IMG/VR virus record: IMGVR_UViG_3300036985_002287 | Span: 30,613-94,612 of that record | Source of the DNA: a virus | Taxonomy: Duplodnaviria > Heunggongvirae > Uroviricota > Caudoviricetes | DNA length: 64,000 nt | Direction: 5' to 3' (one strand) | Part shown: piece by piece, positions 12,479 to 59,567 of the stretch | Layout: every line of letters begins with the position of its first letter | How positions within the stretch are numbered: the first letter of the stretch is position 1 | Notes under the pieces: generated by a model | Told to the model about the DNA's origin: nothing | The model's database searches: none | The model's input: the letters and a program-made list of their open reading frames with translations, nothing else | Position numbers and translations under genes: made by a program

Positions 12479-12482
12479 AATT

Positions 12483-41310: not shown

Positions 41311-42348
41311 TTAAGAAATGTATTTAGCACGAAGCATAGGCATAAAATCTACAGAGTTATCGCCTATCTTCTTTAATCCCCATCTACCACAAAATTTCAT
41401 GAAATGGTGTCCGATCTCAATTGCTGGAACTGCTTTTCTTCCAGTCTCCTCTGCAATGATTTGTAGACATTCTATCTTGATATCGTCCGGTATCTGTGTT
41501 AAGTCTATCAGCATACGATTAAATTCATAACGCTCTCTAACGATTTGTTCTTGTTGGTTATGGTCTACCCATTTCTGCAACATAAAATTATGCCAGCTAA
41601 ATCCTTTGGCTGTCTGATCGCCGAATGCTTCGCGGATACCCACACTCGACTTTGTGCCTTTTTCCCGAACACCGGGGTAGGCACTAAAAATATTGTCTGT
41701 CTTATCCCCGCGGACGCATTTTAAGAACAAAGCATATTCATACCACTTATCTTCACACACAAAGGTAGGATTTCGTTTTCCGGGCTTAATCTTAGCATCG
41801 GATGACAAGATGAATTCGAGTCTCTTCCCGTTATCGTCATAAACTCCATCTTGTTTTATCTGGATGTCCTTGACAGGATCATACAACATAACACCGGGGT
41901 ACCGTAATAACTGAAAGAAATCTGAGTCTGAGCTGATTACTATGTGTTTATCGTCTGGGTGTGCCTCGATAAACATAGCAATCATGTCATCTGCTTCTGC
42001 ATGTTTGTTCTGCAATACAGTTACATTAGTCTTGGTGTCTAAATACTCTACAAGATCATCGAATGCTTCTGTAAGAATGGCATGATCTTCTTGTTCTTTT
42101 TGTGTCAGCAATGCTCTGGCCGCTGTACGATTACCCTTGTAATCGGGGTAGACGTGTTTTCTCCACGAGTGACCTTCTATAAAGAATACAGTATGAGTAC
42201 CATTAAATTTATTGTACTCTTTTTTCATACTGCTAAGAATAAGGTGCAATGCCATCCCTATCATACTATCGATGCCCAATGCAGGATTGGTCATTTTAAT
42301 TTGGCGGTGAAATAGATTTGCGCCGTCTGTATGGATAAATGTGTGCAT
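41311..42348 (-). CDS. 5'-3' exonuclease / flap endonuclease (T4 RNase H / T5 D15-like)
   Basis: KGNR, EADD and SSDSDFFQLL motifs of the FEN/5'-3' exonuclease family. Confidence 0.8.
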   Translation of the reverse strand: MHTFIHTDGANLFHRQIKMTNPALGIDSMIGMALHLILSSMKKEYNKFNGTHTVFFIEGHSWRKHVYPDYKGNRTAARALLTQKEQEDHAILTEAFDDLVEYLDTKTNVTVLQNKHAEADDMIAMFIEAHPDDKHIVISSDSDFFQLLRYPGVMLYDPVKDIQIKQDGVYDDNGKRLEFILSSDAKIKPGKRNPTFVCEDKWYEYALFLKCVRGDKTDNIFSAYPGVREKGTKSSVGIREAFGDQTAKGFSWHNFMLQKWVDHNQQEQIVRERYEFNRMLIDLTQIPDDIKIECLQIIAEETGRKAVPAIEIGHHFMKFCGRWGLKKIGDNSVDFMPMLRAKYIS

Positions 42349-43437: not shown

Positions 43438-44340
43438 TTATGCCATGCTTACATATAAATGCTGTTGTAGGTTCAGCTTGAATCCATGATCAAGACAGTA
43501 TTTACCTGTGTATTCGTGATTACGTTGATTTTCTACTAAGTTTAATAATCCAGGTTCCCAGAAAGAAATTACCTCATCTACTGTAGATCGTTCTGCCATT
43601 GTGATCTCACCTTTCTCTGCTCGAAGTAATTTAATCTTCTGCGGAAAGTCATTATATACATTCATAGGGGAACAATAGATTTCTTTCTCCGGATTAAGTC
43701 TTTTCCATTCGTGTGCCCATTCCGGGACTGTGCTATATGGACTTACCGGGTCCGCACTCATTACAAACTTAAGGCAGTCGGCCCGCTTAAGAATCATATC
43801 AGTCGGTGCTAAATACTTTGTTGCTACACCGTTCTTTTCCGAACACTTGGGAGAACATACAACAGTGACGTGACTGGCTATATATGGATTGCTTATTGTG
43901 CCATTAGTTTCGATTTGAATTGCCTTAAATACCGGTTCAACACTATCCATAAAACCTAATAAATTAGATTGCAACATCGGCTCGCCACCCGTGATAACTA
44001 AGACAATGTTCGGCCAATGGAAGCTTGGCTGTGGCCGAGGGAAACGAGTCATTGCCCACTCCGGCGGCACTTCTGGCGGTGTCCGTGTAGCCCAATAATT
44101 ACGAATAGTATCAAATGCCTTATGCTGAATTTCATCATATGTCATCCATGTACCGTCATCAAAGAAAGTATCGCAGAAAGAACATGCTAGGTTACACTTT
44201 GCTAATCTGATGAATAGTGCAGGTAGACCAGCATAGGGTCCTTCTCCTTGCAACGTAAAGAACATACTTGTAACATACAAGCTGCCTTTAGGTGCTTTAT
44301 CAAAAAATTTCTTGCCAATTATTGTATTAGTTCCGAACAT
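43438..44340 (-). CDS. queE: 7-carboxy-7-deazaguanine synthase QueE (radical SAM)
   Basis: MFFTLQGEGPYAGLPALFIRLAKCNLACSFCDT, VLVITGGEP and QIETNGT are near-identical in spacing to E. coli QueE motifs (FQTLQGEG...CxxxCxxCDT...ITGGEP...QIETSGT). Confidence 0.85.
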   Translation of the reverse strand: MFGTNTIIGKKFFDKAPKGSLYVTSMFFTLQGEGPYAGLPALFIRLAKCNLACSFCDTFFDDGTWMTYDEIQHKAFDTIRNYWATRTPPEVPPEWAMTRFPRPQPSFHWPNIVLVITGGEPMLQSNLLGFMDSVEPVFKAIQIETNGTISNPYIASHVTVVCSPKCSEKNGVATKYLAPTDMILKRADCLKFVMSADPVSPYSTVPEWAHEWKRLNPEKEIYCSPMNVYNDFPQKIKLLRAEKGEITMAERSTVDEVISFWEPGLLNLVENQRNHEYTGKYCLDHGFKLNLQQHLYVSMA

Positions 44341-44520
44341 TATTCTTTATCCTCGAATTTAACAAGTTTAACTCTGACGCCTTCAAATTCATTATCGAAC
44401 GCAACAGTGACAACTTCCAAAACTTCTTCACAGCCTGTTACGCCACGATCATTTATGTCATTCCAGAACTCATCATCGCCTTCTTCTATAACAAATTCGA
44501 ATATGTATCTTTTCATATAT
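44341..44520 (-). CDS. small acidic hypothetical protein (59 aa)
   Basis: Own translation MKRYIFEFVIEEGDDEFWNDINDRG...; ATGA-coupled to queE. Confidence 0.35.
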
Positions 44521-44576
44521 AGTCCTTATCTGTTATTATAGCGATTTTCGATATGTAAGTCAAGTCACCTATCGAA

Positions 44577-44900
44577 TTATACACCAGATGAGTCGCCCCA
44601 TGTATGCATATATTTAGATAGTCTTATCATCTTATTAACACGGGCTTTTTCTATACCAGAAGCGGTAACACCGAGATTCGCGTTAGTAACCATATCTACC
44701 AACGCCAATACATCTCCTAATTCCATTTCTAAATTTTCAAGATTAGTTGTTGTAGAAGCAGGGTTCTTACCCACTACACCAAATCGTTTAATTTTAGATG
44801 CTGCCTGAATTACTTCGGCACATTCTTCCTGAAGAATATTAAGACATTCTTCCTGATGATCATTTACTTGTTTCAAATTTTTTCTCCCAATTCCATGCAT
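44577..44900 (-). CDS. putative MazG-like nucleotide pyrophosphohydrolase
   Basis: all-alpha, ECLNILQEECAEVIQA resembles the MazG EExxE metal-binding helix; weak. Confidence 0.35.
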   Translation of the reverse strand: MHGIGRKNLKQVNDHQEECLNILQEECAEVIQAASKIKRFGVVGKNPASTTTNLENLEMELGDVLALVDMVTNANLGVTASGIEKARVNKMIRLSKYMHTWGDSSGV

Positions 44901-45828
44901 GTGATATAATATCTTTTATATTATATTGAGGTTCCCAATGTAATATATTCTTAGCCTTATCTATACATGCCGTCAATATTGCAGGATCTCCTTTGCGAGG
45001 TGCAACATATTCATATATAGGCTCTTTACCAACTACTTCACCTGCATATTTAACTAGCTCTGTTAAACTTATGCCACCGGTACCACCACCTAAGTTAAAT
45101 ATTTCATTACTGAAACCGGCATTAAGGAATTCTATCGCCTGTACGTGACCTTCTGCTAAGTCAGACACATGAATATAGTCCCTAACACAAGTTCCGTCTT
45201 TTGTAGCATAGTTGTTACCGAATATTTGAAATACTTCATTATTCATTATTTTATTACATATAATAGGAATAACATGAGTAGCAGGGCGCTGTGTATATCC
45301 GAATCGACATTCTGGATCAGCACCTGCGGCATTAAAATATCTAAATGTGATATACTTGATACCATATGCTCTTGCATAATCCCTGATCATTAATTCTCCT
45401 GCTGTCTTTGACGATGCATAGGAATTTTCTGGATCATAATACATATCTTCTTTTAGATATAGAGCTCTGCCTTGCCTACCATATAAATTTCCGGTAGAAC
45501 TAAAGACGATATTTTTTATGCCTATAGCGACCATATGATCGAGCATAACCTGCATTTTTACCACATTATTCGTGTAATATTTAGCCGGCTCTGACAGGCT
45601 TTGCGGCACAATATGCTCCGCTGCCAGATGCACTATTGTATCAAATTTAGTTGTATTTGTTTTAATGAAGTCACAATAATCTGATTCAATAACTTCGCCT
45701 GGACCATTCCAGTTCTGTGTATTCTTATCCACAATAGTAATTTTGTGACCTTCTTCGTGTAATTTATATACTACTTGCGTACCTATAAATCCACAGCCTC
45801 CGGTAACTAGAATATTATGTCTTCTCAT
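44860..45828 (-). CDS. galE: UDP-glucose 4-epimerase (GalE family)
   Basis: VTGGCGFIGT, YASSK, and C-terminal blocks IFGNNYATKDGTCVRDYIHVSDLAEGHV / APRKGDPAIL closely matching E. coli GalE. Confidence 0.85.
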   Translation of the reverse strand: MRRHNILVTGGCGFIGTQVVYKLHEEGHKITIVDKNTQNWNGPGEVIESDYCDFIKTNTTKFDTIVHLAAEHIVPQSLSEPAKYYTNNVVKMQVMLDHMVAIGIKNIVFSSTGNLYGRQGRALYLKEDMYYDPENSYASSKTAGELMIRDYARAYGIKYITFRYFNAAGADPECRFGYTQRPATHVIPIICNKIMNNEVFQIFGNNYATKDGTCVRDYIHVSDLAEGHVQAIEFLNAGFSNEIFNLGGGTGGISLTELVKYAGEVVGKEPIYEYVAPRKGDPAILTACIDKAKNILHWEPQYNIKDIISHAWNWEKKFETSK

Positions 45829-46202
45829 TAGTTGGGAAAATATTCTAATATTCCACCATTAATATTATCTTCGTAAATCTCTACCTTAATGTATCTACCT
45901 TCATACCTGTATCGAATTTTATCGATAAGCTGTTCTGCTAACATCTCACAGCTCATATAGTCCATTTTTAGTTCTTCCACATATAAGGATTCCAGCCATC
46001 GTCTAAACTGAATGAATTCTATATCACGATTGTTCTGGAATACTTCCACAGTTACAACAAAGTAAAAATAGTGGAAGTGTTCGTGTCCTAAGAAAGATAC
46101 ATCATCCCACTTACCCGTCTTTAAGGTAGGATCTGTTAATGCTTCCGGATACCTATGTGTACCTTCTTTAGTAAATTTTACGTTTATATATCGCTTAATC
46201 AT
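45828..46202 (-). CDS. QueD/PTPS-like (6-carboxy-tetrahydropterin synthase family) protein
   Basis: KFTKEGTHRYPE and LGHEH resemble QueD FTFEAAHRLP and LHGHS zinc-ligand motifs; about 120 aa like QueD. Confidence 0.45.
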   Translation of the reverse strand: MIKRYINVKFTKEGTHRYPEALTDPTLKTGKWDDVSFLGHEHFHYFYFVVTVEVFQNNRDIEFIQFRRWLESLYVEELKMDYMSCEMLAEQLIDKIRYRYEGRYIKVEIYEDNINGGILEYFPN

Positions 46203-46353
46203 ACAATCTCTTCGATAATACCTAATATCTCTGCAACTACAATCATTGTACCTGCAAAAAACAGATTTCCTGCAGCAAGACTACATCCTGCCACAATGCG
46301 TAATGCGCTCTTAACGAAACTAATTCGTTGATGTAATTTAGGATCTGGCTGTC

Positions 46354-47142
46354 TCATTTCTTAGCCTTTACTGTTTTCGGTTCTTTCGCAGATAGCGGGT
46401 CTTTCGTAGTACCAGCCGTATATGCTTCAACTGCATCATTAGTAGTCTGAATAGTACTCGTTTTGATGGTCTGGATTTGCGTTTCTTCATCTTCCGGTTT
46501 CAGTTGTGATTTAGCGTCTGGATCAAGTCCTAACTCTGCTTGATTCTTTACATCGCTCAATGGCTTATTTAGCGCCTGTTTGGGCTGCTCTGTTGTAATA
46601 ATAACATCATCTACATATTCACTCCAACTTGTGAAGCGATTGCTATCCGTTACTTCATGATGATTCATACACCATACACCGGGATTTGTTGCACCAAAAT
46701 TAATATCATCAATCTTAATTGTTAAATTAATGTTGGATGTATTTACGTGTGGAATTGCAACACTGAGCACCGGTACAAAGTTTCTGGATTGCCATACATC
46801 CTGATTCAAAATATTAAGTACCATAGCATGTTTATGTGCTGGATAATCTAAAGATACCATAAATCCTGCATTAAGCAAGAACAAGATTTGTTTATCCCAA
46901 TCAGAAGCCAGTGTGTTACCGACCATATACTTTCCGTTTACCATGTCGACAGAATCAAAAGATCTGTTAGCACTCAAGAAGATGTGCTTGACTCCATACT
47001 TTTTAGCATGATCCAAGATAGTTTGTGTATCTTGTAGTCCTACCACAAATAATGTCTTCTTGTTAAATGCAGGTGTCTGCTCAATTTCGGGGCCTACAAA
47101 AAATGTTACGCCTTCATGACCTTTTCTTACAAATTCGCTCAT
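46354..47142 (-). CDS. hypothetical protein
   Basis: 262-aa ORF in the sugar/deazaguanine cluster. Confidence 0.45.
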   Translation of the reverse strand: MSEFVRKGHEGVTFFVGPEIEQTPAFNKKTLFVVGLQDTQTILDHAKKYGVKHIFLSANRSFDSVDMVNGKYMVGNTLASDWDKQILFLLNAGFMVSLDYPAHKHAMVLNILNQDVWQSRNFVPVLSVAIPHVNTSNINLTIKIDDINFGATNPGVWCMNHHEVTDSNRFTSWSEYVDDVIITTEQPKQALNKPLSDVKNQAELGLDPDAKSQLKPEDEETQIQTIKTSTIQTTNDAVEAYTAGTTKDPLSAKEPKTVKAKK

Positions 47143-47143
47143 A

Positions 47144-48232
47144 TTATTTCCTTAATAATTGGTTTATTAAACCGTATGCTGTGAAGTATTCCTTCAGTAA
47201 ATGCGGGGCCAACCTGCCCTTAGTATCCTTACTAATAATATCATATTGACCCATAGTATTCTTTATCAAAGTTATAATATCGGTCTTATGTTTATAATAG
47301 TTTTCCATGCTACTTGTCCACTCATCTGGATATAAGTATCTTACGTCATACATCTCACTATAACTCAATCTATCAGGTAATAAAGGTATGACACCTAGTA
47401 ATGCACCTTCGAACGGACTTATACCTAATGTTTCTTGTAAATTAGCCGACCACATAATCTTCGACTTAGCTAATAATTTATGATATTCTTGCTTTGTTAG
47501 CTTATTATCCTGGCACACAACAAATTTATACTCGGGTAGTGATTCTGCCAGATCTCTAAATATCTCTACCTGCTTTTCGGGTGCAAGACGATGCGGGAAA
47601 ATAATGATATCTTCTTTTTCGCTAGTATCATATTCCTTAAACAGGTCGGGCATATATTCCATAGGCCATCCGGTGCCTATAATTTTCTTCGACTGAATAT
47701 CATCCAGCATATTGGTACCTAACAGATTCAACATAAACATCTCTATGTGAAAATCCGTAGCAAAATAATTATGATCGAATGAATGGTAGAAGCTACGCTC
47801 TGCATTTCTTACCCACGCAGCAGGTCCTATCAATCTGCCCAGGAAATCGTATGCATCATAACTTCCTGCATGCCACATTCCGTGCAGTGTCCAATTATGC
47901 CCCAACAAGTCATTCATATATCTTAGTTGAACAACAGTGGGATTCCACGCATCTGTAAATAAAAAATGATCGTCGGGTGTTACCTTACCGCTATTATAGA
48001 ATTCTATCCAGTTACACAACTGCGAACTTTTCCAATAATTAGTATCCGAGAAGTTTAAGAACGCACCCGGAGTGACTTGTGTATTTTTTTGAATTCCATC
48101 CACTTGAACAATGTTGAATTTATGTCCGCATTGTTTTTCTAACATAGCAGGAACACGACTGTGCCATTGTCCCGTATATCGCGTCTCTATGGGCTCTATA
48201 CTAAAAATCCAGATTGTCGGTTTTACTTCCAT
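47144..48232 (-). CDS. glycosyltransferase (GT-B fold, GT1/GT4-like)
   Basis: C-terminal E..G....EG..LG.IPL motif typical of GT-B nucleotide-sugar transferases. Confidence 0.5.
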   Translation of the reverse strand: MEVKPTIWIFSIEPIETRYTGQWHSRVPAMLEKQCGHKFNIVQVDGIQKNTQVTPGAFLNFSDTNYWKSSQLCNWIEFYNSGKVTPDDHFLFTDAWNPTVVQLRYMNDLLGHNWTLHGMWHAGSYDAYDFLGRLIGPAAWVRNAERSFYHSFDHNYFATDFHIEMFMLNLLGTNMLDDIQSKKIIGTGWPMEYMPDLFKEYDTSEKEDIIIFPHRLAPEKQVEIFRDLAESLPEYKFVVCQDNKLTKQEYHKLLAKSKIMWSANLQETLGISPFEGALLGVIPLLPDRLSYSEMYDVRYLYPDEWTSSMENYYKHKTDIITLIKNTMGQYDIISKDTKGRLAPHLLKEYFTAYGLINQLLRK

Positions 48233-49125
48233 TCAATATATCCTCTAGAATAATTTTGCGGCCTATTAAGCCCCTCATCAAATGCTAGTTTAACTTCTGT
48301 CTCCCTATCATATGACTTTGTCCATAACCCGCTTACATCCAAATCGCCATATCTTAGCAGTTCTTCTGCTAATACCATTGCACTGTAGAATGATTCGTTT
48401 CTCGGACTTGGAAACTTCACATCCACTGCGTTCCAGAGGAACTGTGAGAACGATGTTACTGCTGGCGGATGCTTTTCTGCAGCAAGTACAATTGTAGCAC
48501 GTTCCTTATAAACATTCAAGTTTAGATACTCTGGTTTATCAGATAAGTCTATGATATATTCGAAGCCTTTATTCTGGACATCTTTTAATTGTTTTACTTC
48601 TGCATTATTCTGTTTTGACCAGAAATCTTTGTTGGCTTCGCCGACTACAACTACTTTATTTTCCCAATATCTATCGAGTATTGTATAAACAACTGTTGCT
48701 AAAAATCCTGTACCTAACAATAAAATATCTGCATTTGTAGTCGGCACTATACTCTTTGCAATGTTAATGCCGCAAGCGATAGGTTCTAAAATAAATCTAG
48801 GATTACAATCAGGCACCTTAACAAACATCTTATCCGGGCAGTTATAATAATCAGCAAATGCTGGTTCTCCGCGAGTACCAACATAGTCGCCTTCCTTAAC
48901 AGTTGATATATCTTTACCTACCTTAGTAACTACACCCAGACTTTCGTGTCCTTGTATAGTCTTGGGTAGCATCTGAAATGTACCACAATACATATCGATG
49001 TCAGAACGACAAACACCTGTATAGATAGACTTTACTTCGATCTCATTTGATTTGGGTTCAGGTTTATTCCATTCTTCCTCTATGATGTCTTTGTTGCCTG
49101 TAGTATAGAAAAGTCTTGTCTTCAT
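48223..49125 (-). CDS. zinc-dependent medium-chain dehydrogenase/reductase
   Basis: GVCRSD and GHESLG zinc-ligand motifs of the MDR/ADH family. Confidence 0.7.
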   Translation of the reverse strand: MKTRLFYTTGNKDIIEEEWNKPEPKSNEIEVKSIYTGVCRSDIDMYCGTFQMLPKTIQGHESLGVVTKVGKDISTVKEGDYVGTRGEPAFADYYNCPDKMFVKVPDCNPRFILEPIACGINIAKSIVPTTNADILLLGTGFLATVVYTILDRYWENKVVVVGEANKDFWSKQNNAEVKQLKDVQNKGFEYIIDLSDKPEYLNLNVYKERATIVLAAEKHPPAVTSFSQFLWNAVDVKFPSPRNESFYSAMVLAEELLRYGDLDVSGLWTKSYDRETEVKLAFDEGLNRPQNYSRGYIEWK

Positions 49126-49985
49126 TAAAATCTCTCCAAAAATCTATGAATTTCTAAATCCAATGAATAGCTATCGGATGTATTTGTTAACATTTTACCG
49201 TATGCTTCTGCGGGACATAATCCAAACACCCATTCATATGTTGTGCCGTCTTTAAAATACAAAGTGATAGATTGTTTATCATACCCTTCTTTCCATGCGG
49301 CATATAATTTTACAGAAATTCCGTCTATTGTTGCAATTGCAAATGCTGTATCATCTACGTCATATACACCGTTAGGATAAACTGTTCCATAATCTGTAGA
49401 AGAGATTGACGAGAGATCCCATCTCTGATAACTAGATTGTTTAAATACCGATTTCTTTACAGTATCTTCACCAAATAATTTTACAGCAAAACAATACAGG
49501 TGTGGCATTAAATCTCGGGAGATACCTCCAAAGGAAGAATCCTTATCTGTAAACCAACTACCGGGATTAGGAATACGATTATCATTTATCCAATTAATGT
49601 CGACGCCTATTACTTTTTTGCTTCGCATTAATTCCAATACATCGCCATAACTATCTCTGTACAAGTTATTTTTTACTAAATGGAATGTTGTGTTGGTATA
49701 CTTATATTTAAGTCGACTCCATGCCCATGAATCTACAAGGCCCGGCTTCTCTACGAAGATTTGTTTTGTACCTGTCTCTGCCAATCTTTCTGCGATAGGT
49801 CCGTGCGTAAAATTGGGTGTACAAATTACTGCTATATCGTATGCTTTGTTGATTTCCGATGCATCTTTATATATCGCATTATCTGTTCTTGCATCTAATA
49901 CATCTATATCATAACCTAACTTTTGTAATTCGGGCCAATAGACGTTAGCGCCTATTCCACCGAACCCTGCCAATAATGCCTTCAT
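49125..49985 (-). CDS. Gfo/Idh/MocA-family NAD(P)-dependent oxidoreductase
   Basis: N-terminal GFGGIG Rossmann motif and EKP motif (FVEKPG). Confidence 0.6.
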   Translation of the reverse strand: MKALLAGFGGIGANVYWPELQKLGYDIDVLDARTDNAIYKDASEINKAYDIAVICTPNFTHGPIAERLAETGTKQIFVEKPGLVDSWAWSRLKYKYTNTTFHLVKNNLYRDSYGDVLELMRSKKVIGVDINWINDNRIPNPGSWFTDKDSSFGGISRDLMPHLYCFAVKLFGEDTVKKSVFKQSSYQRWDLSSISSTDYGTVYPNGVYDVDDTAFAIATIDGISVKLYAAWKEGYDKQSITLYFKDGTTYEWVFGLCPAEAYGKMLTNTSDSYSLDLEIHRFLERF

Positions 49986-50231
49986 TTAATCTCCTGAATG
50001 TTTTAATAGATACACTATCATATCTGATTCTTGTAATAGTATTGCTTGTTTTGGATATATAAGATAAGATTTTTTTCCATACGATGATATAGATATAACC
50101 CGTATTAGTTTAGGAGTTACTTTAATTACTGCACCCAATACTAGATTATTGTTTCTACAAAAGGCAACGTGATTTCCTACTGAAATCGCATTGTCTAATA
50201 AATCAGTATGGACTATGCTTTTTGCCGCCAT
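49986..50231 (-). CDS. hypothetical protein
   Basis: 81-aa ORF. Confidence 0.4.
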   Translation of the reverse strand: MAAKSIVHTDLLDNAISVGNHVAFCRNNNLVLGAVIKVTPKLIRVISISSYGKKSYLIYPKQAILLQESDMIVYLLKHSGD

Positions 50232-50499
50232 ACATTGTCTGCAACTCTTTTATTATTTCGTTATCTATTTCTTTGGTTATCTCTGCTGACATAACAGCCA
50301 AGATCTCATCTTCTAAACGCTCGTCGAGTGTTTTATAAGGTTGGCTTAGACGGCGAACAATCTCGTCTGCCCGCTCGTCTTCAGTCATATCTTTGACGTT
50401 CTTAAAATACTCCCGAGGACGGATATCCTGGATGTAATTAATCGATATACTTTCGGATATACCGACAGGCTTTATCTTATCTGTCATAGTCGATAACAC
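50203..50499 (-). CDS. hypothetical protein
   Basis: 98-aa ORF. Confidence 0.4.
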   Translation of the reverse strand: MLSTMTDKIKPVGISESISINYIQDIRPREYFKNVKDMTEDERADEIVRRLSQPYKTLDERLEDEILAVMSAEITKEIDNEIIKELQTMYGGKKHSPY

Positions 50500-50773
50500 G
50501 AATCAACTTATCACCCATCCAATGAGAACAATTTTCATTATCATCTTTTGCTAAGTCTTTGAGCATATTGTCGAATTCTTTCTTAGTGATTTCTCTTCCA
50601 TCAATGATAGTTTCGCCCAAGTGGCGCTGTGTTACTTCTGCGAACATATCAGCTTCACTGCCGGAACTAACCATTGTTACTTCGTCATAAGCATGTTCGA
50701 GCTCATCTGCTTCAATAACATAACGGCATCTAAATGTAGAAATTGTATCTACGATGTATAGTTTCTTTTTCAT
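50477..50773 (-). CDS. hypothetical protein
   Basis: 98-aa ORF. Confidence 0.4.
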   Translation of the reverse strand: MKKKLYIVDTISTFRCRYVIEADELEHAYDEVTMVSSGSEADMFAEVTQRHLGETIIDGREITKKEFDNMLKDLAKDDNENCSHWMGDKLIRVIDYDR

Positions 50774-51000
50774 ATTATTCTCTTATTACTTTTATGCCGT
50801 ATTTTGGCATGTTTTTTTCTTATAGGTCTTATATAAAAATCTGGATCATGCGAATCCGCGAATATTGAGTGGGCACATATAAGCCCGTTCAACATTCCGT
50901 GCATATATTGTACACTAGGGTCGCCGGCAATTACACAATCCGTTTGTATACCGATCATGTTCTCTAGAGTACTAAGATCCTTTTGTAATCTCTCATTCAT
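50770..51000 (-). CDS. hypothetical protein
   Basis: 76-aa ORF. Confidence 0.4.
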   Translation of the reverse strand: MNERLQKDLSTLENMIGIQTDCVIAGDPSVQYMHGMLNGLICAHSIFADSHDPDFYIRPIRKKHAKIRHKSNKRII

Positions 51001-52561
51001 CTTCTTCAGCTAAATGTACATCGTCCATATCAGCCATATCTTGCACTGTTGGTAATTCATCAACTGGTTCTGTAGTAGGTTGTCCCCACATATCGACATT
51101 TTCTATAGTAGTAACAGTTTTCTTATCACCAAAACTAATACTTTCCAAGAAGTCCTTATAAGTTTCTAACATTTTATATGGGTCCTTATTATTTGGATCA
51201 AATAATTCCTCAACAAACTTATTAAAATAAATTATATCATTCGGAACAAAATCGCTCTTATTAGAAACCTTACCTTTCTTCCCTCTATACTGATACCAAT
51301 CTCTAAAATCTACACTTGGCAGCGTAGCATGAGCTATGTCTGCCAACCGATTGATTTCTTGAACTGCATGTATATGATTATACACATTGTGGGCCATAAC
51401 AAGAGCATAGCTAGTTGTATCCCAGCTTGTTTTACCTATCTTTTTATTCTTATTTGTATCAGTTGGACCCATAACACAAATGTCACCACTTGTTAATCTG
51501 TCATTAATGGGACTTTGATAAGGCATGGCATATCTTGTATTTTTCAATCCCTTATCATCCAAGCCCTTACCCATAGAATAAGTCAGTCTATCTGACGAGA
51601 AGTGAGTGTAGTCGTAAGATAAAGCATATCCACCTGCTGCAACAAACGGTGATGCAGCATCAAAGCTAATGCTAATGTTAGGATTGTGATACTTCTTAAT
51701 TTGTCTTTCGATGGATGTTAAGTAACAAGCCCAATCGAGTCTGCCAATACCCAAGAAGTGAATCCAGTCTTTACCTTCCAGTAAACCATCATCACGTAAG
51801 TTCAGTAATCGTTCGAGTGTTACTCTCATACGGCGCATATTACAACCTGCAAATGCCCAGCCTTCTAATGTCCTATCACGCGAATAACCCAATGCTTCTA
51901 CTATATCTGGTTGGCTAAACACTTTTACAGATTCGTACCACACTTTGGAATTTTCATTATCGCTACCCGATAATACATTAAGAAATTTTGTAGCACCGGG
52001 AATACGATTCTTCATGAAGTAATGAAGATTACATTCAGTAACATCCAGACATTCTTGAAAACTTGTTAAACCAGTCTTTGCACTAAATGGAGGTTTAGCG
52101 GCAAATGCAGGTACATCTAATGTCATAGACCAATCCGAAGTGTGTTCTAAGTATCGTAGAATTTCTTCTCTTAGCTTATCGCCCTCGGGACCTTTAACAG
52201 TTTTCCAATCTAACTTAATAACACCGGTCGCTACCTGAAACCCGCCCGAATCGCCAACAATAATTGTTTTCTCGCGATTACGCTTATGGATCATCGGCTC
52301 TTTAATATCACATCTATCCAGACGTCTTTCGGCGTGCCCTGCTGAAAATAATCCGTAGCCATAATGATAGTAAGAATTATCAGGTTCTAAAAAGTCCAAA
52401 CCTTGTATACCATGTTCGAATTTTTCCGGCACACGTTCTTTAGGAATAAATGTCGGATCAGAAAGATCCTTTCCTAAGTGAGTAGTATAGAACCCGCTGA
52501 TTGCAGGTAGATACTTAGCCCACTTACCGTCGTCGTGACGCTTTGTTAGATTAATACCCAT
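50993..52561 (-). CDS. dpdA: tRNA-guanine-transglycosylase-like protein; candidate DpdA-type DNA 7-deazaguanine transglycosylase
   Basis: TGT catalytic signature IIVGDSGGFQV (DSGGFQ), 522 aa; genomic association with queE and a queD-like gene in a phage. Confidence 0.65.
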   Translation of the reverse strand: MGINLTKRHDDGKWAKYLPAISGFYTTHLGKDLSDPTFIPKERVPEKFEHGIQGLDFLEPDNSYYHYGYGLFSAGHAERRLDRCDIKEPMIHKRNREKTIIVGDSGGFQVATGVIKLDWKTVKGPEGDKLREEILRYLEHTSDWSMTLDVPAFAAKPPFSAKTGLTSFQECLDVTECNLHYFMKNRIPGATKFLNVLSGSDNENSKVWYESVKVFSQPDIVEALGYSRDRTLEGWAFAGCNMRRMRVTLERLLNLRDDGLLEGKDWIHFLGIGRLDWACYLTSIERQIKKYHNPNISISFDAASPFVAAGGYALSYDYTHFSSDRLTYSMGKGLDDKGLKNTRYAMPYQSPINDRLTSGDICVMGPTDTNKNKKIGKTSWDTTSYALVMAHNVYNHIHAVQEINRLADIAHATLPSVDFRDWYQYRGKKGKVSNKSDFVPNDIIYFNKFVEELFDPNNKDPYKMLETYKDFLESISFGDKKTVTTIENVDMWGQPTTEPVDELPTVQDMADMDDVHLAEEDE

Positions 52562-52569: not shown

Positions 52570-53313
52570 TTACGCCTTGCCAGCTGGCAGAAGATAGGTA
52601 TACTTTCCTATACCACTGTCAATATCAATCTTCAATACGCCCATGTCGGAGAAGCTCATAGTAGCTGTAGCTGTCTCTGTCAATTTCAAGATACTGAGAA
52701 CTTGTGACAAAGGCCACGACCACTGATGCTTCAATGTACCTGTTACATTTTCTGCAAAAGAAATATCCATCTTATCTGCAGGACCCGATCCCACAGCAAA
52801 TACCAATGTACCTTTAGTATTCACACTAACAGTAAATCTCTTTTCTAAAGAACCTAATGCGCCTTGCATATAAGACAGTTCGGTAATTCTCTTCTTCTCT
52901 GGTGTAATAACTACATTCCATGTTGCACCCTTAAATGGTGGAACTTTAATTTGTTCATTAACCATTGACTCGCCCATAAAGCGATAATTTGCAGAAGATT
53001 CGCCGCTGTCAAACTTAACTCCAGTTGGAACAGTAACACCCGCACGAGATTCTGTAACTACTTCCGTAGTTGCCTTTGATCCAGAATATGGTGGAAAGTC
53101 AATAAAGCTCTTTAACACTGGAATGCGAGATAATCCCACAACAGAATCAATACCTGCGATAGGCTGATACATAGTTCCAAAAATAACAACAGTCTTATCT
53201 GCATCTAGTGCTTCAATCTTTGCATCTGTTGCTGTACCTACAATTTTTACCATATCAATAAAGCCTAACGAATTTGTGTGCTTAATGATATCCTTAAATG
53301 AATCTAATAACAT
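52570..53313 (-). CDS. hypothetical protein adjacent to DNA polymerase
   Basis: 247-aa ORF; position next to polB. Confidence 0.45.
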   Translation of the reverse strand: MLLDSFKDIIKHTNSLGFIDMVKIVGTATDAKIEALDADKTVVIFGTMYQPIAGIDSVVGLSRIPVLKSFIDFPPYSGSKATTEVVTESRAGVTVPTGVKFDSGESSANYRFMGESMVNEQIKVPPFKGATWNVVITPEKKRITELSYMQGALGSLEKRFTVSVNTKGTLVFAVGSGPADKMDISFAENVTGTLKHQWSWPLSQVLSILKLTETATATMSFSDMGVLKIDIDSGIGKYTYLLPAGKA

Positions 53314-53367: not shown

Positions 53368-56316
53368 TCAGCAGTTGCTGAAGTCAAACAACGTTTCCAG
53401 GTGTGCATGTTCTTTGTTGGTTCTGCTAAGATCCCATTTAAGCACACCTAATAAATTTTCGACCTTCTTATCGACAATGCCTGCCATCATATCGTCACTG
53501 TCGAATGGCAAACTTAAGAACCATTCCGGTAAATGTGTTTCGTCTACAGGATATGCAATACTAGACAATCTATTTTCGGTTGTTTCTTTTAACTTACAAA
53601 CAATAATCTTTTGGCCGTCGACGATACGCATTGCATGTTGGTCTTGATTAATTTCCTTTAACTTGTTCCATGCAAGACTAGCAGATACATGACCCGGTAC
53701 ATGCAAGTTTCCGGATTCTATACCCTTCAACTTTTTAACACCGGCATCTTCTATCTTTTCTCTATAATGCGTTAATCTATTAACTGCGCGAGGAGTGCCT
53801 TGCTGCCATGGTTTCATGCTTTCGAATGTTTCCTTGAATAGCTTAATCTTTTCTATGACAGCATTCTCGCCCTTACCAGTCAATGTATCCATCAATATTT
53901 CTGATAAGAATTTTTGAACAAACTTAGGTGTATCAGCTCTCTTCAGATCCAGTCCCATTGCCTTTACCTTACCTACTTTGCCACTAGCATCAAGTCGAAT
54001 TCCGTCCTTATCATACATAAGACAAGCATAACGTTTCTTAACAATCCATAATCCTGTTTCGGACACTGTTTCACGAGAACTAGCAATTACACCAGTGGAT
54101 CGCTTAATGGGCACATTTAGTCGTCCTAATAAGAACTCCGGGAATGTTGCAGATACTGCTTTGGCTAAGGAATTGTACAAATCTACAATGCTTTCCTTTG
54201 TCCACTCTATCTCACCCCTGTCAATCTCTTCTTTAAGAATAGGATATGCGGAGAAATAACACGAGTCAGTATCGCCATATACGATGCACTTACCATAATG
54301 ATCATATTCATTTGTTATCATCTCATTAGTCTTAGCAGCCATATGTTTAGTAATTGTTCTGCCAGTTAATGTAGTAGATTGTCCGAGGCGTTGATCAAAG
54401 AATCTGCTTCCAGCATTTAACAAAGCGCCGTATGCGGAGTTCAGGTTAATTTTCTTAACTAACTGCCTCTTGTCCCAGAAACCAATGATAGATTTCAGTG
54501 ACTTCTGGTCACGATGAATTGCTTTACCATCTTTTACCATTAAGTTATGTTGGTTCATATATTGAACAACACGCTTCTTATGACCTTCGGAAATAATTTC
54601 TTTCAGTTTCTTTGGTCTATATGCTTCGGAATCCAGGAAAGGATCTGCCTTTGATTCTACATCACTTATGTCATCGTTCGTAAACAAATCTGCAGAAACC
54701 TTTACGCCGTCGATCTTAGCATTATCTTCTATATCCTGATAATTTACCATGAGACCCTGAAGTATCTTACGCTCGTTATACCAACGAGTTAATAGACTAG
54801 GAATAACACCGTCTGTATCAGTTTTGAATATTGTGCCATTTGCGCTAATGCACCAAGGCTGTCCACTCTCAAATATTAAGTCATGAAGTTCTTTACCTGT
54901 CACTTCAAATTCGGAACCATCTTCCATATCTAATATCATAGATGTGCCGATATCTTGATTATAGAAATCTTCCATCTCTAACACATTAAATCTGTCGTTC
55001 CACCAAGATGCAAATGTATATTTTGCGCCTTTCTTTTCCCAGTCAGCAATTGCCTGATTAGTACGATCCAATCTAATCTGCCCGATAATCATTTCAGGGC
55101 TCATATTAAGAGTTCTAATAACAGATGGATACAGAGACTTCATGTCGGTAGAAGCGATCCATCTATGCAAACCCTTCTTAGGTGTTGCTACCCACCCGCC
55201 TGCTGCTCTAGTTTCTCTATCTTCGCCATGCTTCTTATCCGGGCACACCATATTACGGTTGTGCGCTTCTATAAGAATGTTTTGATCAGTAACTGCCACA
55301 ACACCCATAATTGTCTGAATTAACACACAACTCGAATGTGCAATAGAATTAGCCAAATCAATAAACTGTAATTTTCTATCAAGCTGATCCAGCAGTCGTG
55401 TATCTTGTATGTTATACTCTAAAAACTTCTTAAAATCGTCATTGTATAATTCATCTAGAGTACCTTCATATTGTACTTTAGTTTCGCCTAGTTCAATTTC
55501 TGCAATTGCATTAAGCGCATAACTATGCCGTTCTTCATAGTTGAACTTCTTATAAATTTGCATATAGTCGATAGATATTCTGCCGATCAGATCGTATGTA
55601 AATGCTTCTTTTCCGCCTCTGTCGTATTTTCTTTCTTTAGGCATTTGTTCCCAGAGACATAGCTTTCGGGCCGCTTGTTTTCCTAATACTTTCTTTATAC
55701 GATTAACTACATACGGAATATCATATACTTCCGAATTCCATCCAGATAATACATCGGCATCTTCTACAATGTCCATGAAGGCATTTAACATCTCGCCTTC
55801 ATCTTTGAATAATACAGTATTACCTACCTGATTAGCAATTTCATTTGCTTCTTCCCAGGTATGTGTATCTGGTGGAATAGCCAAACAAATAATTTCATCC
55901 TGCCACTGTAAGTGTACTGATATAGCTGTTATGTAATTATCTGCATCGGCTGGATCAGACCAACCACGTTCTTTATCGAAACTAGTTTCTATATCGAAAA
56001 ATGCTACATTTAATTTAGGTGCTTCGCCACTGTGATAATTATGTTCGAGACATCGAAAGACAGGATCTACGTCAGATTCCCAACTCTTGACATTACTGGA
56101 TAATGTTTTAACAAGTTTTTGTTTTTCGCCAAATGAGCGCGGCGTTACTTTTTTGACTGCGTCGCCAAAAATACTTTTGTGTGAACCACGCGGATCAGTG
56201 ACAAAGAAATGGAAATCAGGTTGGTACTCTTTATAAACACGAGCCCCGTTTATTCTTTCTACTATCCTGATTGTTTCTTCTTCGCCCGATCTCTTGAAGG
56301 AGGCATCAATATACAC
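53368..56316 (-). CDS. family B DNA polymerase
   Basis: 982 aa; exonuclease motifs, KINLNSAYGALLN (motif B K..NS.YG) and YGDTDS (motif C). Confidence 0.9.
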   Translation of the reverse strand: MYIDASFKRSGEEETIRIVERINGARVYKEYQPDFHFFVTDPRGSHKSIFGDAVKKVTPRSFGEKQKLVKTLSSNVKSWESDVDPVFRCLEHNYHSGEAPKLNVAFFDIETSFDKERGWSDPADADNYITAISVHLQWQDEIICLAIPPDTHTWEEANEIANQVGNTVLFKDEGEMLNAFMDIVEDADVLSGWNSEVYDIPYVVNRIKKVLGKQAARKLCLWEQMPKERKYDRGGKEAFTYDLIGRISIDYMQIYKKFNYEERHSYALNAIAEIELGETKVQYEGTLDELYNDDFKKFLEYNIQDTRLLDQLDRKLQFIDLANSIAHSSCVLIQTIMGVVAVTDQNILIEAHNRNMVCPDKKHGEDRETRAAGGWVATPKKGLHRWIASTDMKSLYPSVIRTLNMSPEMIIGQIRLDRTNQAIADWEKKGAKYTFASWWNDRFNVLEMEDFYNQDIGTSMILDMEDGSEFEVTGKELHDLIFESGQPWCISANGTIFKTDTDGVIPSLLTRWYNERKILQGLMVNYQDIEDNAKIDGVKVSADLFTNDDISDVESKADPFLDSEAYRPKKLKEIISEGHKKRVVQYMNQHNLMVKDGKAIHRDQKSLKSIIGFWDKRQLVKKINLNSAYGALLNAGSRFFDQRLGQSTTLTGRTITKHMAAKTNEMITNEYDHYGKCIVYGDTDSCYFSAYPILKEEIDRGEIEWTKESIVDLYNSLAKAVSATFPEFLLGRLNVPIKRSTGVIASSRETVSETGLWIVKKRYACLMYDKDGIRLDASGKVGKVKAMGLDLKRADTPKFVQKFLSEILMDTLTGKGENAVIEKIKLFKETFESMKPWQQGTPRAVNRLTHYREKIEDAGVKKLKGIESGNLHVPGHVSASLAWNKLKEINQDQHAMRIVDGQKIIVCKLKETTENRLSSIAYPVDETHLPEWFLSLPFDSDDMMAGIVDKKVENLLGVLKWDLSRTNKEHAHLETLFDFSNC

Positions 56317-56645: not shown

Positions 56646-57054
56646 TTAGTTGCAGGCGCATCGGGCAACTTCCTTGCCACGATAATCAGCAATTGCTGCC
56701 TTCACTGCATCCTCTGCAAGAATTGAGCAATGTATCTTAACCGGAGGTAGTGCCAATTCTTCTGCAATTTGCGAATTCTTAATAGTTGCTGCTTCGTCTA
56801 GTGTCTTACCTTTTACCCATTCGGTAACTAAAGAACTCGACGCAATAGCTGACCCGCAACCATATGTCTTAAATTTTGCATCTTCGATGATGCCTGTAGC
56901 GGGATTTACTTTTATTTGGAGTTTCATTACATCTCCGTTAACCGCACGCTGGGGCGCCGACAATGCCGGTTCCAACGTGCGTATTCTCCTTATCTAAATT
57001 CCCGACATTACGGGGGTTTTCATAGTGGTCAATCACTTGTTTACTATAGGACAT
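56646..57054 (-). pseudogene. iscU: IscU Fe-S cluster scaffold homologue disrupted by a 7-nt insertion (frameshift plus in-frame TAA)
   Basis: Frame A (57054..56938) = MSYSKQVIDHYENPRNVGNLDKENTHVGTGIVGAPACG*; frame B (ORF 56646..56975) continues ...DVMKLQIKVN...FKTYGCGSAIASSSLVTEWVKGK...LPPVKIHCSILAEDAVKAAIADY. Together these are collinear with E. coli IscU except for 7 extra nt (gTTAACg, a HpaI site) at the ACG|DVM junction. Confidence 0.75.
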
Positions 57055-57628
57055 TTTTAGTTCTCCTTCTCTCATGAGCAAGTTTCATGGATATAGATCT
57101 CTTGAGACGTGTTTCTTCGGAGACCTCCTTACCTCTGTTTCCTGCTTGAATCTTTAATTTAGTTTCCGCGGAATGTTGTTTACCTAACATGGGGCCGGGT
57201 TTACCATATCCGTGATGTTTTTCTCCAGAAAACTGTTTTAATTTTGTTTTTTGTTCTTCAGACATAATCCTGCCAAAACAAACATTCTTCTCCCCGAGCA
57301 TAGATTCGCTTTTCTTACGTTTTTCTTCTTCTGTCCAGGCTCTTCCACCCTTAGAATGGCCTATCTTACCCACATTACCTTCGCCGCCATCGGATTTATT
57401 CTGTAATATGCCTGTATTAATATCTTTTCTTCCCCACCACGCAATCATCCTGCGTTCTATCGCCCAGGCACCTATCTCGGATAATTTAGATTCAAGAATC
57501 ACAATTTTCGACTTATCGTTAGGTCTGTTTATGTTTGTGTGCTTTTCCCAGGCTCTCCTGTTTTTACCTTTCCCTATGTAGTAAGGTTTACCGGAGTTAC
57601 CTATATATGCATATACATAGAACATCAT
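57044..57628 (-). CDS. GIY-YIG homing endonuclease with NUMOD3 DNA-binding repeats
   Basis: N-terminal YVYAYIGNSGKPYYIGKGKNRR (GIY-YIG) and repeated S(E/A)E(Q/T)K.K(L/I) NUMOD3-like motifs. Confidence 0.8.
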   Translation of the reverse strand: MMFYVYAYIGNSGKPYYIGKGKNRRAWEKHTNINRPNDKSKIVILESKLSEIGAWAIERRMIAWWGRKDINTGILQNKSDGGEGNVGKIGHSKGGRAWTEEEKRKKSESMLGEKNVCFGRIMSEEQKTKLKQFSGEKHHGYGKPGPMLGKQHSAETKLKIQAGNRGKEVSEETRLKRSISMKLAHERRRTKNVL

Positions 57629-58761: not shown

Positions 58762-58795
58762 ATTGTATTTATCTTATTTATTGCGTAGTCAAAAG

Positions 58796-58818
58796 AAAAG
58801 GGGCACGAGCCCCTTTTC
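58796..58818 (-). terminator. rho-independent terminator (aaaaGGGGCacgaGCCCCtttt)
   Basis: 5-bp GC stem with A and T runs, downstream of the 58833..59198 stop. Confidence 0.6.
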
Positions 58819-58832
58819 AGACATTATCAATA

Positions 58833-59198: not shown

Positions 59199-59321
59199 TT
59201 TTAATTTCCTTATAAAGTGCCATAATTGGCCACTATTGCAATTTACTGCCTCACCATGAGCACAGTTCTTGTAGTGTAACAGTATTTATGTGCGGTCGCA
59301 ACAATTCTGTATAATATCGGT

Positions 59322-59555: not shown

Positions 59556-59567
59556 TTTTACCTCCTA

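Follow-up and report, generated by a model that had tools for sequence, protein, structure and literature searches.

The gene block at positions 43438-52561 of the window, the 64,000-nt stretch of jumbo-phage DNA analyzed here, raises the question of whether this phage modifies guanine in its own DNA and whether a sugar is part of that modification. Every ORF named in the first-pass annotation is present in the ORF list of the window at the coordinates given there, and all of them lie on the minus strand, as do all features of the block described below. The genes form two abutting or overlapping blocks, one running from the DpdA-like gene to the gene of a 262-aa protein, the other from the DpdL-like gene to MazG and followed by h58 and QueE. 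The gaps between genes in the module are 151 nt and 60 nt. Polymerase and clamp genes flank the DpdA-like gene on one side and RNase H on the other; the DpdA-like gene is immediately next to those for the DNA polymerase and a probable sliding clamp. Four small overlapping ORFs (81, 98, 98, and 76 aa; 49986..51000) separate the DpdA-like and Gfo genes, and have homologues at the equivalent position in 8-37 of 81 related loci. Judged from its sequence, the block very probably directs a 7-deazaguanine-type modification of guanine in the phage's own DNA. The first-pass reading of the region as such a locus is supported, with a DpdA-like transglycosylase at its center and QueE-like and DpdL-like genes around it.

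The DpdA-like protein (522 aa; 50993..52561) has the (beta/alpha)8 TIM barrel of the TGT superfamily, a C-terminal helical extension, and an acidic disordered tail (residues 479-522). The structural comparison with DpdA and TGT that the first-pass annotation had proposed gave the DNA enzyme DpdA (PDB 7ui4) as the top match, with only 14% identity. The earlier family assignment from the DSGGFQ motif is borne out by this fold and by the conserved catalytic motifs. In hmmsearch, DSGGfQ and tLD..vP aligned with DSGGYQ and AFDECTP, respectively, of Z. mobilis TGT, whose catalytic aspartates are D102 (general acid/base, in DSGG(F/Y)Q), D156 (substrate, in LD) and D280 (nucleophile, in FD). Among 70 diverse relatives of the DpdA-like protein, D104, S105, G107 and D301 do not vary, and D149 is kept in at least 90%; by its motif alone, D301 would correspond to D280. 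No model of Pfam (PF01702 TGT), NCBIfam, PHROG or the PADLOC Dpd set matched the protein. Because the accepted phage DpdAs of ACP17, BUDD, BUCT-ZZ01 and phiST also lack a Pfam TGT match in hmmscan, such a miss is typical of divergent phage DpdAs. By tblastn, only PA5oct-like phages, Phosso and Vibrio phage 2.275.O were matched. More sensitive comparisons gave matches to ACP17 DpdA (hhalign E 4e-5), nt-1 (Foldseek E 1.1e-8) and Megan (Foldseek E 1.5e-3), and a marginal one to the 259-aa DpdA3 of phiST (Foldseek E 4.8e-3; hhalign probability 36%). The protein exceeds other phage DpdAs in length by about 100-260 aa, and its long-form clade, with about 800 clusters at 50% identity, looks like a separate one beside DpdA1-DpdA4 (Hutinet 2019/2023).

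The sequence profile of this protein also matches tRNA TGTs, and three tRNAs are encoded in the window, as might be expected if the enzyme acted on host or phage tRNA and the cluster boosted queuosine-type tRNA modification. We regard this as very improbable. The top structural match is a DNA enzyme, and the phage tRNAs (Leu-TAA, Met-CAT and Arg-TCT) lack the GUN anticodons targeted by TGT. tRNA TGTs carry a Zn-binding CxCxxC...H subdomain, but no CxCxxC is seen in the C-terminal half of the DpdA-like protein, and its single conserved Cys is C362. The position of the gene between polymerase/clamp genes and RNase H argues in the same direction. Moreover, DNA of Pseudomonas phage PA5oct has been reported to resist restriction enzymes with G-containing sites, and a modified G was inferred from this resistance. 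The structural match to DpdA, the linkage to QueE and DpdL, and the PA5oct resistance lead us to predict that the enzyme exchanges G for a 7-deazaguanine in DNA.

The precursor for this exchange would come from the QueE-like radical-SAM enzyme (7-carboxy-7-deazaguanine synthase; 43438..44340). It matches PHROG 2076 "QueE-like radical SAM" (E 1.7e-47), has conserved Cx3Cx2C and QGEG motifs, and is 40% identical to ACP17 QueE over its full length and 45% identical to a homologue in Rhizobium phage RHph_I1_18. Its best five NCBIfam models are all QueE equivalogs, with scores of 45-72 bits against cut-offs of 200-300, so the protein is divergent rather than near-canonical as first described. The MazG-like NTP pyrophosphohydrolase (44577..44900) kept its assignment, with a Pfam MazG match above cut-off (E 4.5e-07) and a match to PHROG 4856 (E 5.5e-19). 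It is present in 16 of 58 related metagenomic loci, all of which continue for 6 kb or more downstream of the DpdA-like gene; this sample was used for every count out of 58 given below. A MazG-like gene also occurs in the deazaguanine cluster of phiST. In the 64-kb window, no FolE, QueD, QueC or PRTase gene was found, in agreement with the first-pass observation on QueC and FolE; the lack of the first three counts against the pathway proposed below.

The 124-aa T-fold protein (45828..46202) had been called QueD-like. It has LxxxHFHxF (L-G-H-E-H-F-H) in place of the QueD motif CxxxHGH, lacks the catalytic Cys, and matched nothing in Pfam (PTPS included) or NCBIfam; the QueD identity was rejected on these grounds. 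By tblastn and motif alignment it belongs to the DpdL family and is a predicted CDG-modifying enzyme. It matched phiST CGPG_00067 (DpdL; E 3e-8 on the locus) and ACP17 ASD50405 (DpdL; 43% identity), and the aligned T-fold proteins have EGxHxYP, LxxxHxHxF, RDxEF and SCE in common, with the QueD Cys absent. The protein thus shows what defines DpdL, namely a T-fold homologous to CGPG_00067 and a gene that occurs together with DpdA and QueE, with no QueC in the window. LxxxHRHxF is exact in 47 of 48 clade members. At one position where 47 of the 48 have His, the copy in this phage unusually has Gln, a point against the pathway proposed below. ACP17, phiST, BUCT-ZZ01 and RHph_I1_18 each have a separate annotated QueD/PTPS gene besides the DpdL-like one. 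The sole published prediction for the family is that DpdL decarboxylates CDG to 7-deazaguanine (PMC10516641). Since the T-fold protein is in this family, the inserted base is more likely a CDG derivative made by DpdL (7-deazaguanine or a derivative of it) than CDG or preQ0 itself, as had been considered earlier. Expression of dpdL and dpdA of ACP17 or phiST in E. coli did not yield dDG, and further enzymes were suggested (Hutinet et al., PMC10516641).

How does the module compare with known 7-deazaguanine systems? Bacterial DpdA, with DpdB and DpdC, reportedly gives low levels of dPreQ0 and dADG (PMC10516641); DpdB and DpdC are absent here. The Cellulophaga phage phiST has a dDG set of FolE, QueD, QueE, MazG, DpdL and DpdA3 (Hutinet et al. 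2023, PMC10516641). The window shares with it a QueE-like enzyme, a MazG-like protein, the DpdL family, a divergent DpdA missed by Pfam, and the lack of QueC. Unlike the window, phiST has FolE and QueD genes of its own and no glycosyltransferase (GT), 262-aa protein or sugar-nucleotide genes. That phiST reaches dDG without a GT would fit a module that makes a plain known base, either dDG as in phiST or dCDG, while GT, GalE, Gfo and ADH act elsewhere, for example on another DNA base, on virion proteins or on the host envelope, and are simply carried along with the replication module. We consider this rather unlikely; no pyrimidine hydroxymethylase gene was found in the window, and further evidence comes from the GT itself.

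The probable GT-B (GT4-like) glycosyltransferase (47144..48232) was assigned from sub-threshold Pfam matches, a family profile and linkage. The window protein alone matches Glycos_transf_1 weakly (E 0.0026), as do nine of 10 family members, all under the gathering score (best E 5.9e-5). The family profile found the WlaC GT4 structure (E 0.0026) along with three further GT-B chains in PDB; with all PDB sequences searched up to E 10, it matched no chain of T4 Agt or Bgt (GT63/GT72). PAC2 and Phosso carry homologues with the annotation glycosyltransferase. JGI pipelines label some homologues "glycosyltransferase involved in cell wall biosynthesis", a name in favor of a target other than the deazaguanine. 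The adjacent 262-aa protein (46354..47142) has an N-terminal alpha/beta domain, an invariant KIDDxxFxxTNPGVW and a low-complexity C-terminus.

Alongside the DpdA-like gene, the 262-aa protein and DpdL-like genes occur in 58/58 related loci, the GT in 57/58 and a GalE-like gene in 50/58. Shared descent and synteny could partly explain this co-presence within the metagenomic clade. In a wider search, the GT family was found in 23 of 50,697 phage records, 18 of which also have a DpdL-like gene, in most cases no more than a few kb away. The GT lies by DpdL-like and QueE genes in six separate cultured lineages (PA5oct, Phosso, ACP17, BUDD/X1, BCSR5 and BUCT-ZZ01) with varying gene order; four of the six have an adjoining DpdA-type gene as well. 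In BUCT-ZZ01, DpdA and DpdL are flanked by two GT-B genes. ACP17 and BUDD, which share no more than 23-25% DNA polymerase identity with the window phage, have the GT between or beside DpdA-type and DpdL genes, which argues against mere co-travelling. On the other side, the GT lineage of Xanthomonas PhiXhv/Ep032 (e.g. PhiXhv-15) has GlmS and a deacetylase as neighbors and lacks deazaguanine genes in the vicinity. In divergence, the GT goes with the DpdA-like gene and QueE. Compared with a close relative (L021), the GT, the DpdA-like gene and QueE are the three most diverged genes (84%, 70% and 81% nucleotide identity, respectively), with h247 at 87% and most neighboring genes at 92-99%. On this comparative evidence, the GT is probably a functional part of the deazaguanine modification.

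The Acidovorax phage ACP17 cluster contains QueD, FolE, a 132-aa protein, DpdA, GT, DpdL and QueE. Contiguous with its DpdA are homologues of the window's 262-aa protein N-domain (30% identity), GT (38%), DpdL-like protein (43%) and QueE (40%), and the DpdAs align on the DSGG, FD, LGVG and YD motifs. ACP17 differs in being a T4-like phage (polymerase 25% identical) with a shorter DpdA (424 aa), its own FolE and QueD, and no GalE, Gfo or ADH nearby. Its DpdL and DpdA were named by Hutinet et al., who do not mention the GT (PMC10516641). PA5oct (Wroclawvirus) and its relatives (Paride, MIJ3 and others) share the backbone of polymerase, clamp-like, DpdA-like, GT and DpdL-like genes, then QueE and RNase H, with identities of 48% (DpdA-like), 45% (GT) and 57% (DpdL-like). 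The PA5oct locus differs in lacking the 262-aa protein, Gfo, ADH and MazG, and in having a 172-aa SDR fragment in the place of GalE, a PRTase and a different QueE subtype. The DpdA-like and GT genes of PA5oct are annotated as hypothetical, and the END-nuclease preprint does not note them.

The UDP-glucose 4-epimerase GalE (44860..45828) is a full-length TIGR01179 equivalog (302.8 bits vs. a cut-off of 262.3) and is a probable supplier of the donor sugar. The Zn-dependent MDR/ADH-like dehydrogenase (48223..49125; ADH_N E 1.8e-11) and the Gfo/Idh/MocA oxidoreductase (49125..49985; GFO_IDH_MocA_C3 and N-terminal domain) also scored above the Pfam cut-offs, so all three earlier family assignments hold. 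Among PDB sequences, Gfo matches inositol 2-dehydrogenase best (E 5.5e-5). The Gfo and ADH genes are found in just 6/58 loci, always as a pair. Comparative linkage therefore ties the GT, the 262-aa protein and, less strictly, GalE to the pathway, and of the sugar genes placed in it by the first-pass annotation, Gfo and ADH are accessory. A second sugar pair noted 15 kb away consists of an HldD-like SDR (27845-28627; Epimerase E 8.8e-26) and a cupin (28624-28980; sub-threshold match only). The SDR assignment stands, and the pair shows no detectable link to the module.

We hold with moderate confidence that a DpdA/DpdL-type guanine modification with a built-in sugar branch is the best explanation of the block, and we infer its substrates, order of steps and sugar acceptor as follows. 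QueE would convert CPH4, supplied by host FolE/QueD or by phage copies outside the window, to 7-carboxy-7-deazaguanine (CDG). The DpdL-family enzyme would convert CDG, by decarboxylation to 7-deazaguanine if the published prediction applies, and the DpdA-like enzyme would swap guanine in phage DNA for the DpdL product. The GT would then place a hexose on the modified base or on a derivative made with the 262-aa protein. GalE would supply UDP-galactose, Gfo and ADH may tailor the sugar further in this phage, and MazG may bias the nucleotide pool.

In this order the pathway would resemble the sugar-decorated hydroxymethylcytosine of T-even phages, which replace a base and then decorate it by means of GT-B enzymes (T4 alpha/beta-glucosyltransferases; arabinosyl-hmC phages), with a sugar-nucleotide supply that is reportedly sometimes self-encoded (PMC13216743). 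It differs in the base (G rather than C), the GT family and the pathway that makes the acceptor. Alternatively, the GT and the 262-aa protein might glycosylate the free deazapurine base or nucleotide, and a DpdA-like enzyme with an enlarged pocket would insert the bulky base, as eukaryotic TGT does with queuine. The great length of the DpdA-like protein and its fastest divergence between close relatives are compatible with this idea. A PRTase is found in 25/58 related loci, PA5oct and BUCT-ZZ01, and therefore suggests base- or nucleotide-level handling, although salvage of guanine freed by base exchange would explain it equally well and the window has none. We know of no precedent for glycosylation before base insertion, and T-even phages add their DNA sugars after replication. 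We thus find sugar attachment before insertion improbable.

7-Deazaguanine itself offers no obvious O- or N-acceptor at C7; a sugar adduct therefore needs unprecedented chemistry or another DpdL product. A sugar on the final DNA base is quite possible, though somewhat less likely than not. Because the GT recurs beside DpdL-like, QueE and DpdA-type genes, the module may represent a new, sugar-linked 7-deazaguanine DNA modification; the near-constant GT, unlike described 7-deazaguanine systems, hints at an undescribed sugar-decorated DNA base. We tentatively suggest that a sugar-bearing 7-deazaguanine replaces G in a very large, mostly uncultured jumbo-phage clade and in PA5oct, Phosso, ACP17, BUDD/X1, BCSR5 and BUCT-ZZ01. 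If so, it would be a base class undescribed in any DNA, made by a DpdA-type insertase, a DpdL-type T-fold enzyme, the 262-aa protein and a dedicated GT-B. Lineage-specific GalE, Gfo/ADH, UDP-sugar dehydrogenase and cytidylyltransferase would then diversify the sugar, as in T-even phages.

The module genes named in the first-pass annotation are real open reading frames, all on the minus strand of the window between 43438 and 52561. They form two blocks. The first, from 52561 down to 46354, contains the DpdA-like transglycosylase gene, the ORFs h76, h98b, h98a and h81 (named by length in amino acids), Gfo, ADH, the glycosyltransferase (GT) gene and the gene of a 262-aa protein. The second, from 46202 down to 43438, contains a T-fold gene, GalE, MazG (44577-44900), h58 and QueE. 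Gene neighbours in each block abut or overlap by 1-41 nt, except for a 60-nt gap between MazG and h58, and 151 nt separate the two blocks. The module is flanked upstream by a 247-aa protein (h247, 52570-53313; PHROG 12062, unknown function) and a family-B DNA polymerase (53368-56316), and downstream by an RNase H/5'-3' exonuclease (41311-42348). h247 is conserved in this place, adjoining the polymerase gene, in 80 of 81 loci. The homologue in Phosso (30% identity) carries a sliding-clamp annotation, and that in PA5oct is listed as a virion structural protein detected by mass spectrometry. A nucleotide search of 50,697 deposited phage records gave no match to the 9 kb block. Between 43000 and 53500, promoter counts equalled the shuffled expectation, and terminators showed only a modest excess (10 vs. 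5.4 expected, sd 2.3) with no drawable operon boundary.

The 522-aa DpdA-like protein (50993-52561) belongs to a family that comprises about 800 clusters at the 50% identity level: when 1.84 billion cluster representatives were scanned in full with HMMER, 797 matched with E values up to 1e-3. The DSGGFQ motif had been read correctly from the sequence, and a 70-sequence profile aligns it with DSGGYQ of the Z. mobilis enzyme. Across these 70 diverse relatives there is no variation at D104, S105, G107, P151, H268, G271 and D301, and hardly any at D149. Searches of PDB sequences with the single protein or with a 36-sequence profile returned noise only. A signal emerged only with the 70-sequence profile, which matched TGT chains exclusively (44 of 44, best E 0.0096); its LD and G-W-A-F-A-G segments align with their TGT counterparts. 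An hhalign comparison of the family with E. coli Tgt was not significant (probability 11.5%), and the segment aligned was the expected GGLAVGE region. The CxCxxC zinc motif was not found in the protein. The nearest named viral models are the "tRNA guanine transglycosylase" of Achromobacter phage Motura and R9TGF0 of Vibrio phage nt-1, and the match to phiST DpdA3 was marginal only. The protein looks like a distinct long-form clade that is not placed within DpdA1-4. At its C-terminus, a helical extension is followed by a disordered and strongly acidic tail (residues 479-522) ending in …DELPTVQDMADMDDVHLAEEDE, and the gene adjoins those of the polymerase and the probable clamp. By analogy, and speculatively, this tail recalls the acidic ones by which phage SSBs are tethered to replisomes.

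A rival reading is that the enzyme modifies tRNA rather than DNA. We disfavour it because the best fold match is DpdA, and because the genomic context and the restriction data for PA5oct also speak against it. In addition, GUN anticodons are absent from the three tRNA genes of the window, Leu(TAA), Met(CAT) and Arg(TCT), which lie on the minus strand at 11054-13366.

The 300-aa QueE-like protein (43438-44340) has a PHROG match at E 1.7e-47, only QueE models among its best NCBIfam matches, and conserved Cx3Cx2C and QGEG motifs. Because its NCBIfam scores fall far below the equivalog cut-offs, it cannot be called near-canonical, as it had been. The 124-aa T-fold protein (45828-46202) had been taken for a small PTPS/QueD-like enzyme, but it has LGHEHFH in place of CxxxHGH, the Cys of which is essential in QueD (PMC10516641). 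A tblastn search shows its homology to phiST CGPG_00067 and ACP17 ASD50405. These are DpdL proteins, proposed to decarboxylate 7-carboxy-7-deazaguanine (CDG) to 7-deazaguanine (DG), and were described together with DpdA3 by Hutinet et al. 2023 (PMC10516641). Several phages carry a DpdL-like gene and, annotated apart from it, a QueD/PTPS gene, so these enzymes are distinct. The DpdL-like proteins of the window and of its relative L021 contain HFH where the clade has HRH. In its V-x-H-x-x-R-D-x-E-F motif, the window protein also has Gln in place of the His present in 47 of 48 clade members; these changes may alter the activity. When copies from related loci were used in tBLASTn against the window, FolE, QueD, phosphoribosyltransferase (PRTase), cytidylyltransferase and UDP-sugar dehydrogenase were not found, and the reported lack of FolE thus holds over all 64 kb.

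Three adjacent minus-strand genes at 6810-10050 encode a periplasmic binding protein of the TctC family whose N-terminus resembles a signal peptide, a 390-aa protein that has a PP-loop-like SGGSDS motif and matches nothing in the databases, and a radical-SAM protein of 394 aa whose C-terminus is rich in Cys. The 390-aa protein (7694-8866) was considered as a QueC substitute and rejected, since Pfam, NCBIfam and PDB lent it no support. The stretch 56646-63828 holds the gene of a NifU/IscU-like Fe-S scaffold (E 3.6e-36) that might serve the radical-SAM QueE. Also located there are a NUMOD3 homing-endonuclease-like gene and genes for a sigma-70 region-4 protein, a 738-aa ClpB/ClpA-type double-AAA chaperone and a DnaJ C-terminal-domain protein. 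Genes of a host-physiology type unusual in phage specify a cell-wall hydrolase (Hydrolase_2, 11575-12102), a membrane-anchored GGDEF diguanylate cyclase (15301-15978, E 4e-38) and a secreted D-Ala-D-Ala carboxypeptidase (Peptidase_S11, 18084-18845, E 1e-30). At 23795-27138, genes for a DUF2201 metallopeptidase/VWA protein and a MoxR-like AAA ATPase precede that of a macro-domain protein; in two related loci (L091 and L092), the AAA and DUF2201 pair turns up again, downstream of the module.

To separate core from accessory genes, window proteins were mapped onto 80 IMG/VR loci fetched for their transglycosylase relatives, and genes were counted in the 58 of them that extend 6 kb or more downstream. 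The 262-aa protein (46354-47142) and the DpdL-like protein are present in all 58, GT (47144-48232) in 57 and the GalE-like protein (44860-45828) in 50. QueE was found in at least 35 loci, a number bounded by flank length, FolE in 28, PRTase in 25, MazG in 16, Gfo (49125-49985) and ADH (48223-49125) in 6 each, and QueD in none. These counts make GT, the 262-aa protein and, less strictly, GalE core partners of the DpdA-like gene, and Gfo and ADH accessory. The latter two always lie side by side, beside core genes, and directly upstream of GT in 6 of 7 Gfo-carrying loci. The idea that the interleaved sugar genes belong with the module is thereby supported for GT and, less strictly, for GalE, but not for Gfo/ADH as core genes. 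GT occurs in 360-aa and 400-aa forms that alignment places in one family, with invariant E13, E16, R18-Y19-T20 and E-K-Q motifs. Glycos_transf_1 was matched by 9 of 10 members, each match being weak, the family profile matches GT4 and other GT-B structures, and some homologues carry a glycosyltransferase annotation. The evidence for a glycosyltransferase is thus individually weak yet consistent. A GT search gave at least 8,000 significant matches, many on contigs of 200-390 kb.

The SDR epimerase/dehydratase-like gene (260 aa) that overlaps a cupin gene (118 aa; sub-threshold Cupin_2/mannose-6-P isomerase matches) at 27845-28980 had been proposed as a second sugar pair. It is not linked to the module, and a cupin homologue occurs in 0 of 81 related loci. 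Apparent HldD matches in these loci were rejected as cross-matches to the GalE-like gene at about 25% identity. In other lineages (L031, IMGVR_UViG_3300043409_000928, 15460-21288; L086, 17412-17900), the genes near the module include a cytidylyltransferase-like one, a UDP-glucose/GDP-mannose dehydrogenase-like one and, in phage BUDD, an adenylyl/cytidylyltransferase. This variety suggests lineage-specific donor sugars. The PRTase, absent from the window, is a type-I enzyme encoded within the module in the 25 related loci (among them L031, L063, L075, L092, L087 and L001) and in PA5oct, often adjoining FolE or QueE.

The window phage and L021 (IMGVR_UViG_3300021602_000003, a contig of 166 kb) are close relatives with mosaic genomes. 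Most genes are 92-99% identical at the nucleotide level, including polymerase (98.3%), RNase H (98.4%) and DpdL-like (97.6%). The clamp-like h247 (87%) and partial h76 and h168 matches (89-91%) are in between, and the most diverged are DpdA-like (70%), QueE (81%) and GT (84%). Where it encodes the C-terminal part of the protein, the DpdA-like gene cannot be aligned with L021 at all at the nucleotide level. That DpdA-like, QueE and GT are exchanged or evolve fast together is a second, independent hint that these enzymes act on one product.

Because shared descent could explain co-presence inside one clade, deposited phages were examined. Among 50,697 records, the GT family was found in 23, DpdL-like in 28 and both in 18. 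The order is QueD, FolE, a 132-aa homologue of the 262-aa protein, DpdA, GT, DpdL and QueE in ACP17; FolE, then GT, DpdA, DpdL and QueE in Xanthomonas phage BUDD; and DpdL, then GT, an adjacent 446-aa ORF of unconfirmed identity, QueE and FolE in Burkholderia phage BCSR5. Cyanophage BUCT-ZZ01 has QueE, a PRTase annotated XGPRT, QueD, FolE, a second GT-B, DpdA, DpdL and a 400-aa GT that is 58% identical to metagenomic ones. Phosso has clamp, DpdL-like, GT, FolE and QueE, and PA5oct has DpdA-like, GT, DpdL-like, an SDR fragment, PRTase and QueE. The GT of ACP17 is ASD50404, and that of PA5oct is EST35_0317. With gene order differing among these phages and polymerases only 23-25% identical to that of the window in the two compared (ACP17 and BUDD), the joint occurrence of GT and deazaguanine genes across lineages bears the signature of functional coupling. 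phiST differs in having DpdL but no GT. A counter-example is the Xanthomonas PhiXhv/Ep032 group, in which GT neighbours GlmS and a deacetylase and deazaguanine genes are missing from the vicinity. In phage PhiXhv-15 (L088, 4750-7984), GT comes directly after the genes of GlmS and a BshB-like deacetylase, and none of the deazaguanine genes lies within 7 kb; here the transferase family may be put to another use, one that involves amino sugars.

Gene linkage and the assignments to fold and family are observed; the substrates and the acceptor atom are inferred, in our best reading as follows. QueE would convert CPH4 to CDG, with FolE and QueD supplied by the host or encoded elsewhere in the phage genome, since both are absent from the 64 kb. 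The DpdL-like enzyme would convert CDG, and the DpdA-like enzyme would swap the product into phage DNA near the replisome. GT would add a hexose, GalE providing UDP-Gal, and Gfo/ADH could tailor the sugar in the window phage. In relatives, the PRTase could salvage guanine released in the base exchange or activate a deazapurine base. The chief chemical difficulty is that DG has no obvious acceptor at C7, so that either DpdL and the 262-aa protein would make a product other than DG or the linkage would be unusual. Alternatively, the DNA may hold plain DG or CDG, with GT serving another target, or glycosylation may precede base insertion. That the DNA base itself bears a sugar we consider a serious possibility, if a somewhat doubtful one.

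Eight 7-deazaguanine DNA bases are known and, to our knowledge, none of them carries a sugar. Our literature searches found no description of glycosylated deazaguanine in DNA, and the published pathway papers searched do not mention a glycosyltransferase. Hutinet et al. 2023 (PMC10516641) use neither the word "sugar" nor "glycosyl". The END-nuclease preprint on PA5oct noted only QueE and a PTPS-like gene, and reported no DpdA, GT or mass spectrometry. The initial observation is confirmed, and its interpretation is supported in part. The locus represents a new and sugar-linked variant among 7-deazaguanine DNA-modification systems; an apparent long-form DpdA clade and two core partners, GT and the 262-aa protein, are newly recognised here. 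The GT-bearing system is widespread in metagenomic jumbo phages and is present in cultured phages too. In E. coli, dpdL and dpdA alone failed to yield DG in DNA (Hutinet et al. 2023, PMC10516641); if our reading is true, GT as an obligate DpdA/DpdL partner would explain this failure. It would also suggest what the modified G in the therapeutic phage PA5oct may be, and would offer modification-dependent defence nucleases, as well as tools for sequencing and enzymology, a new class of substrate.
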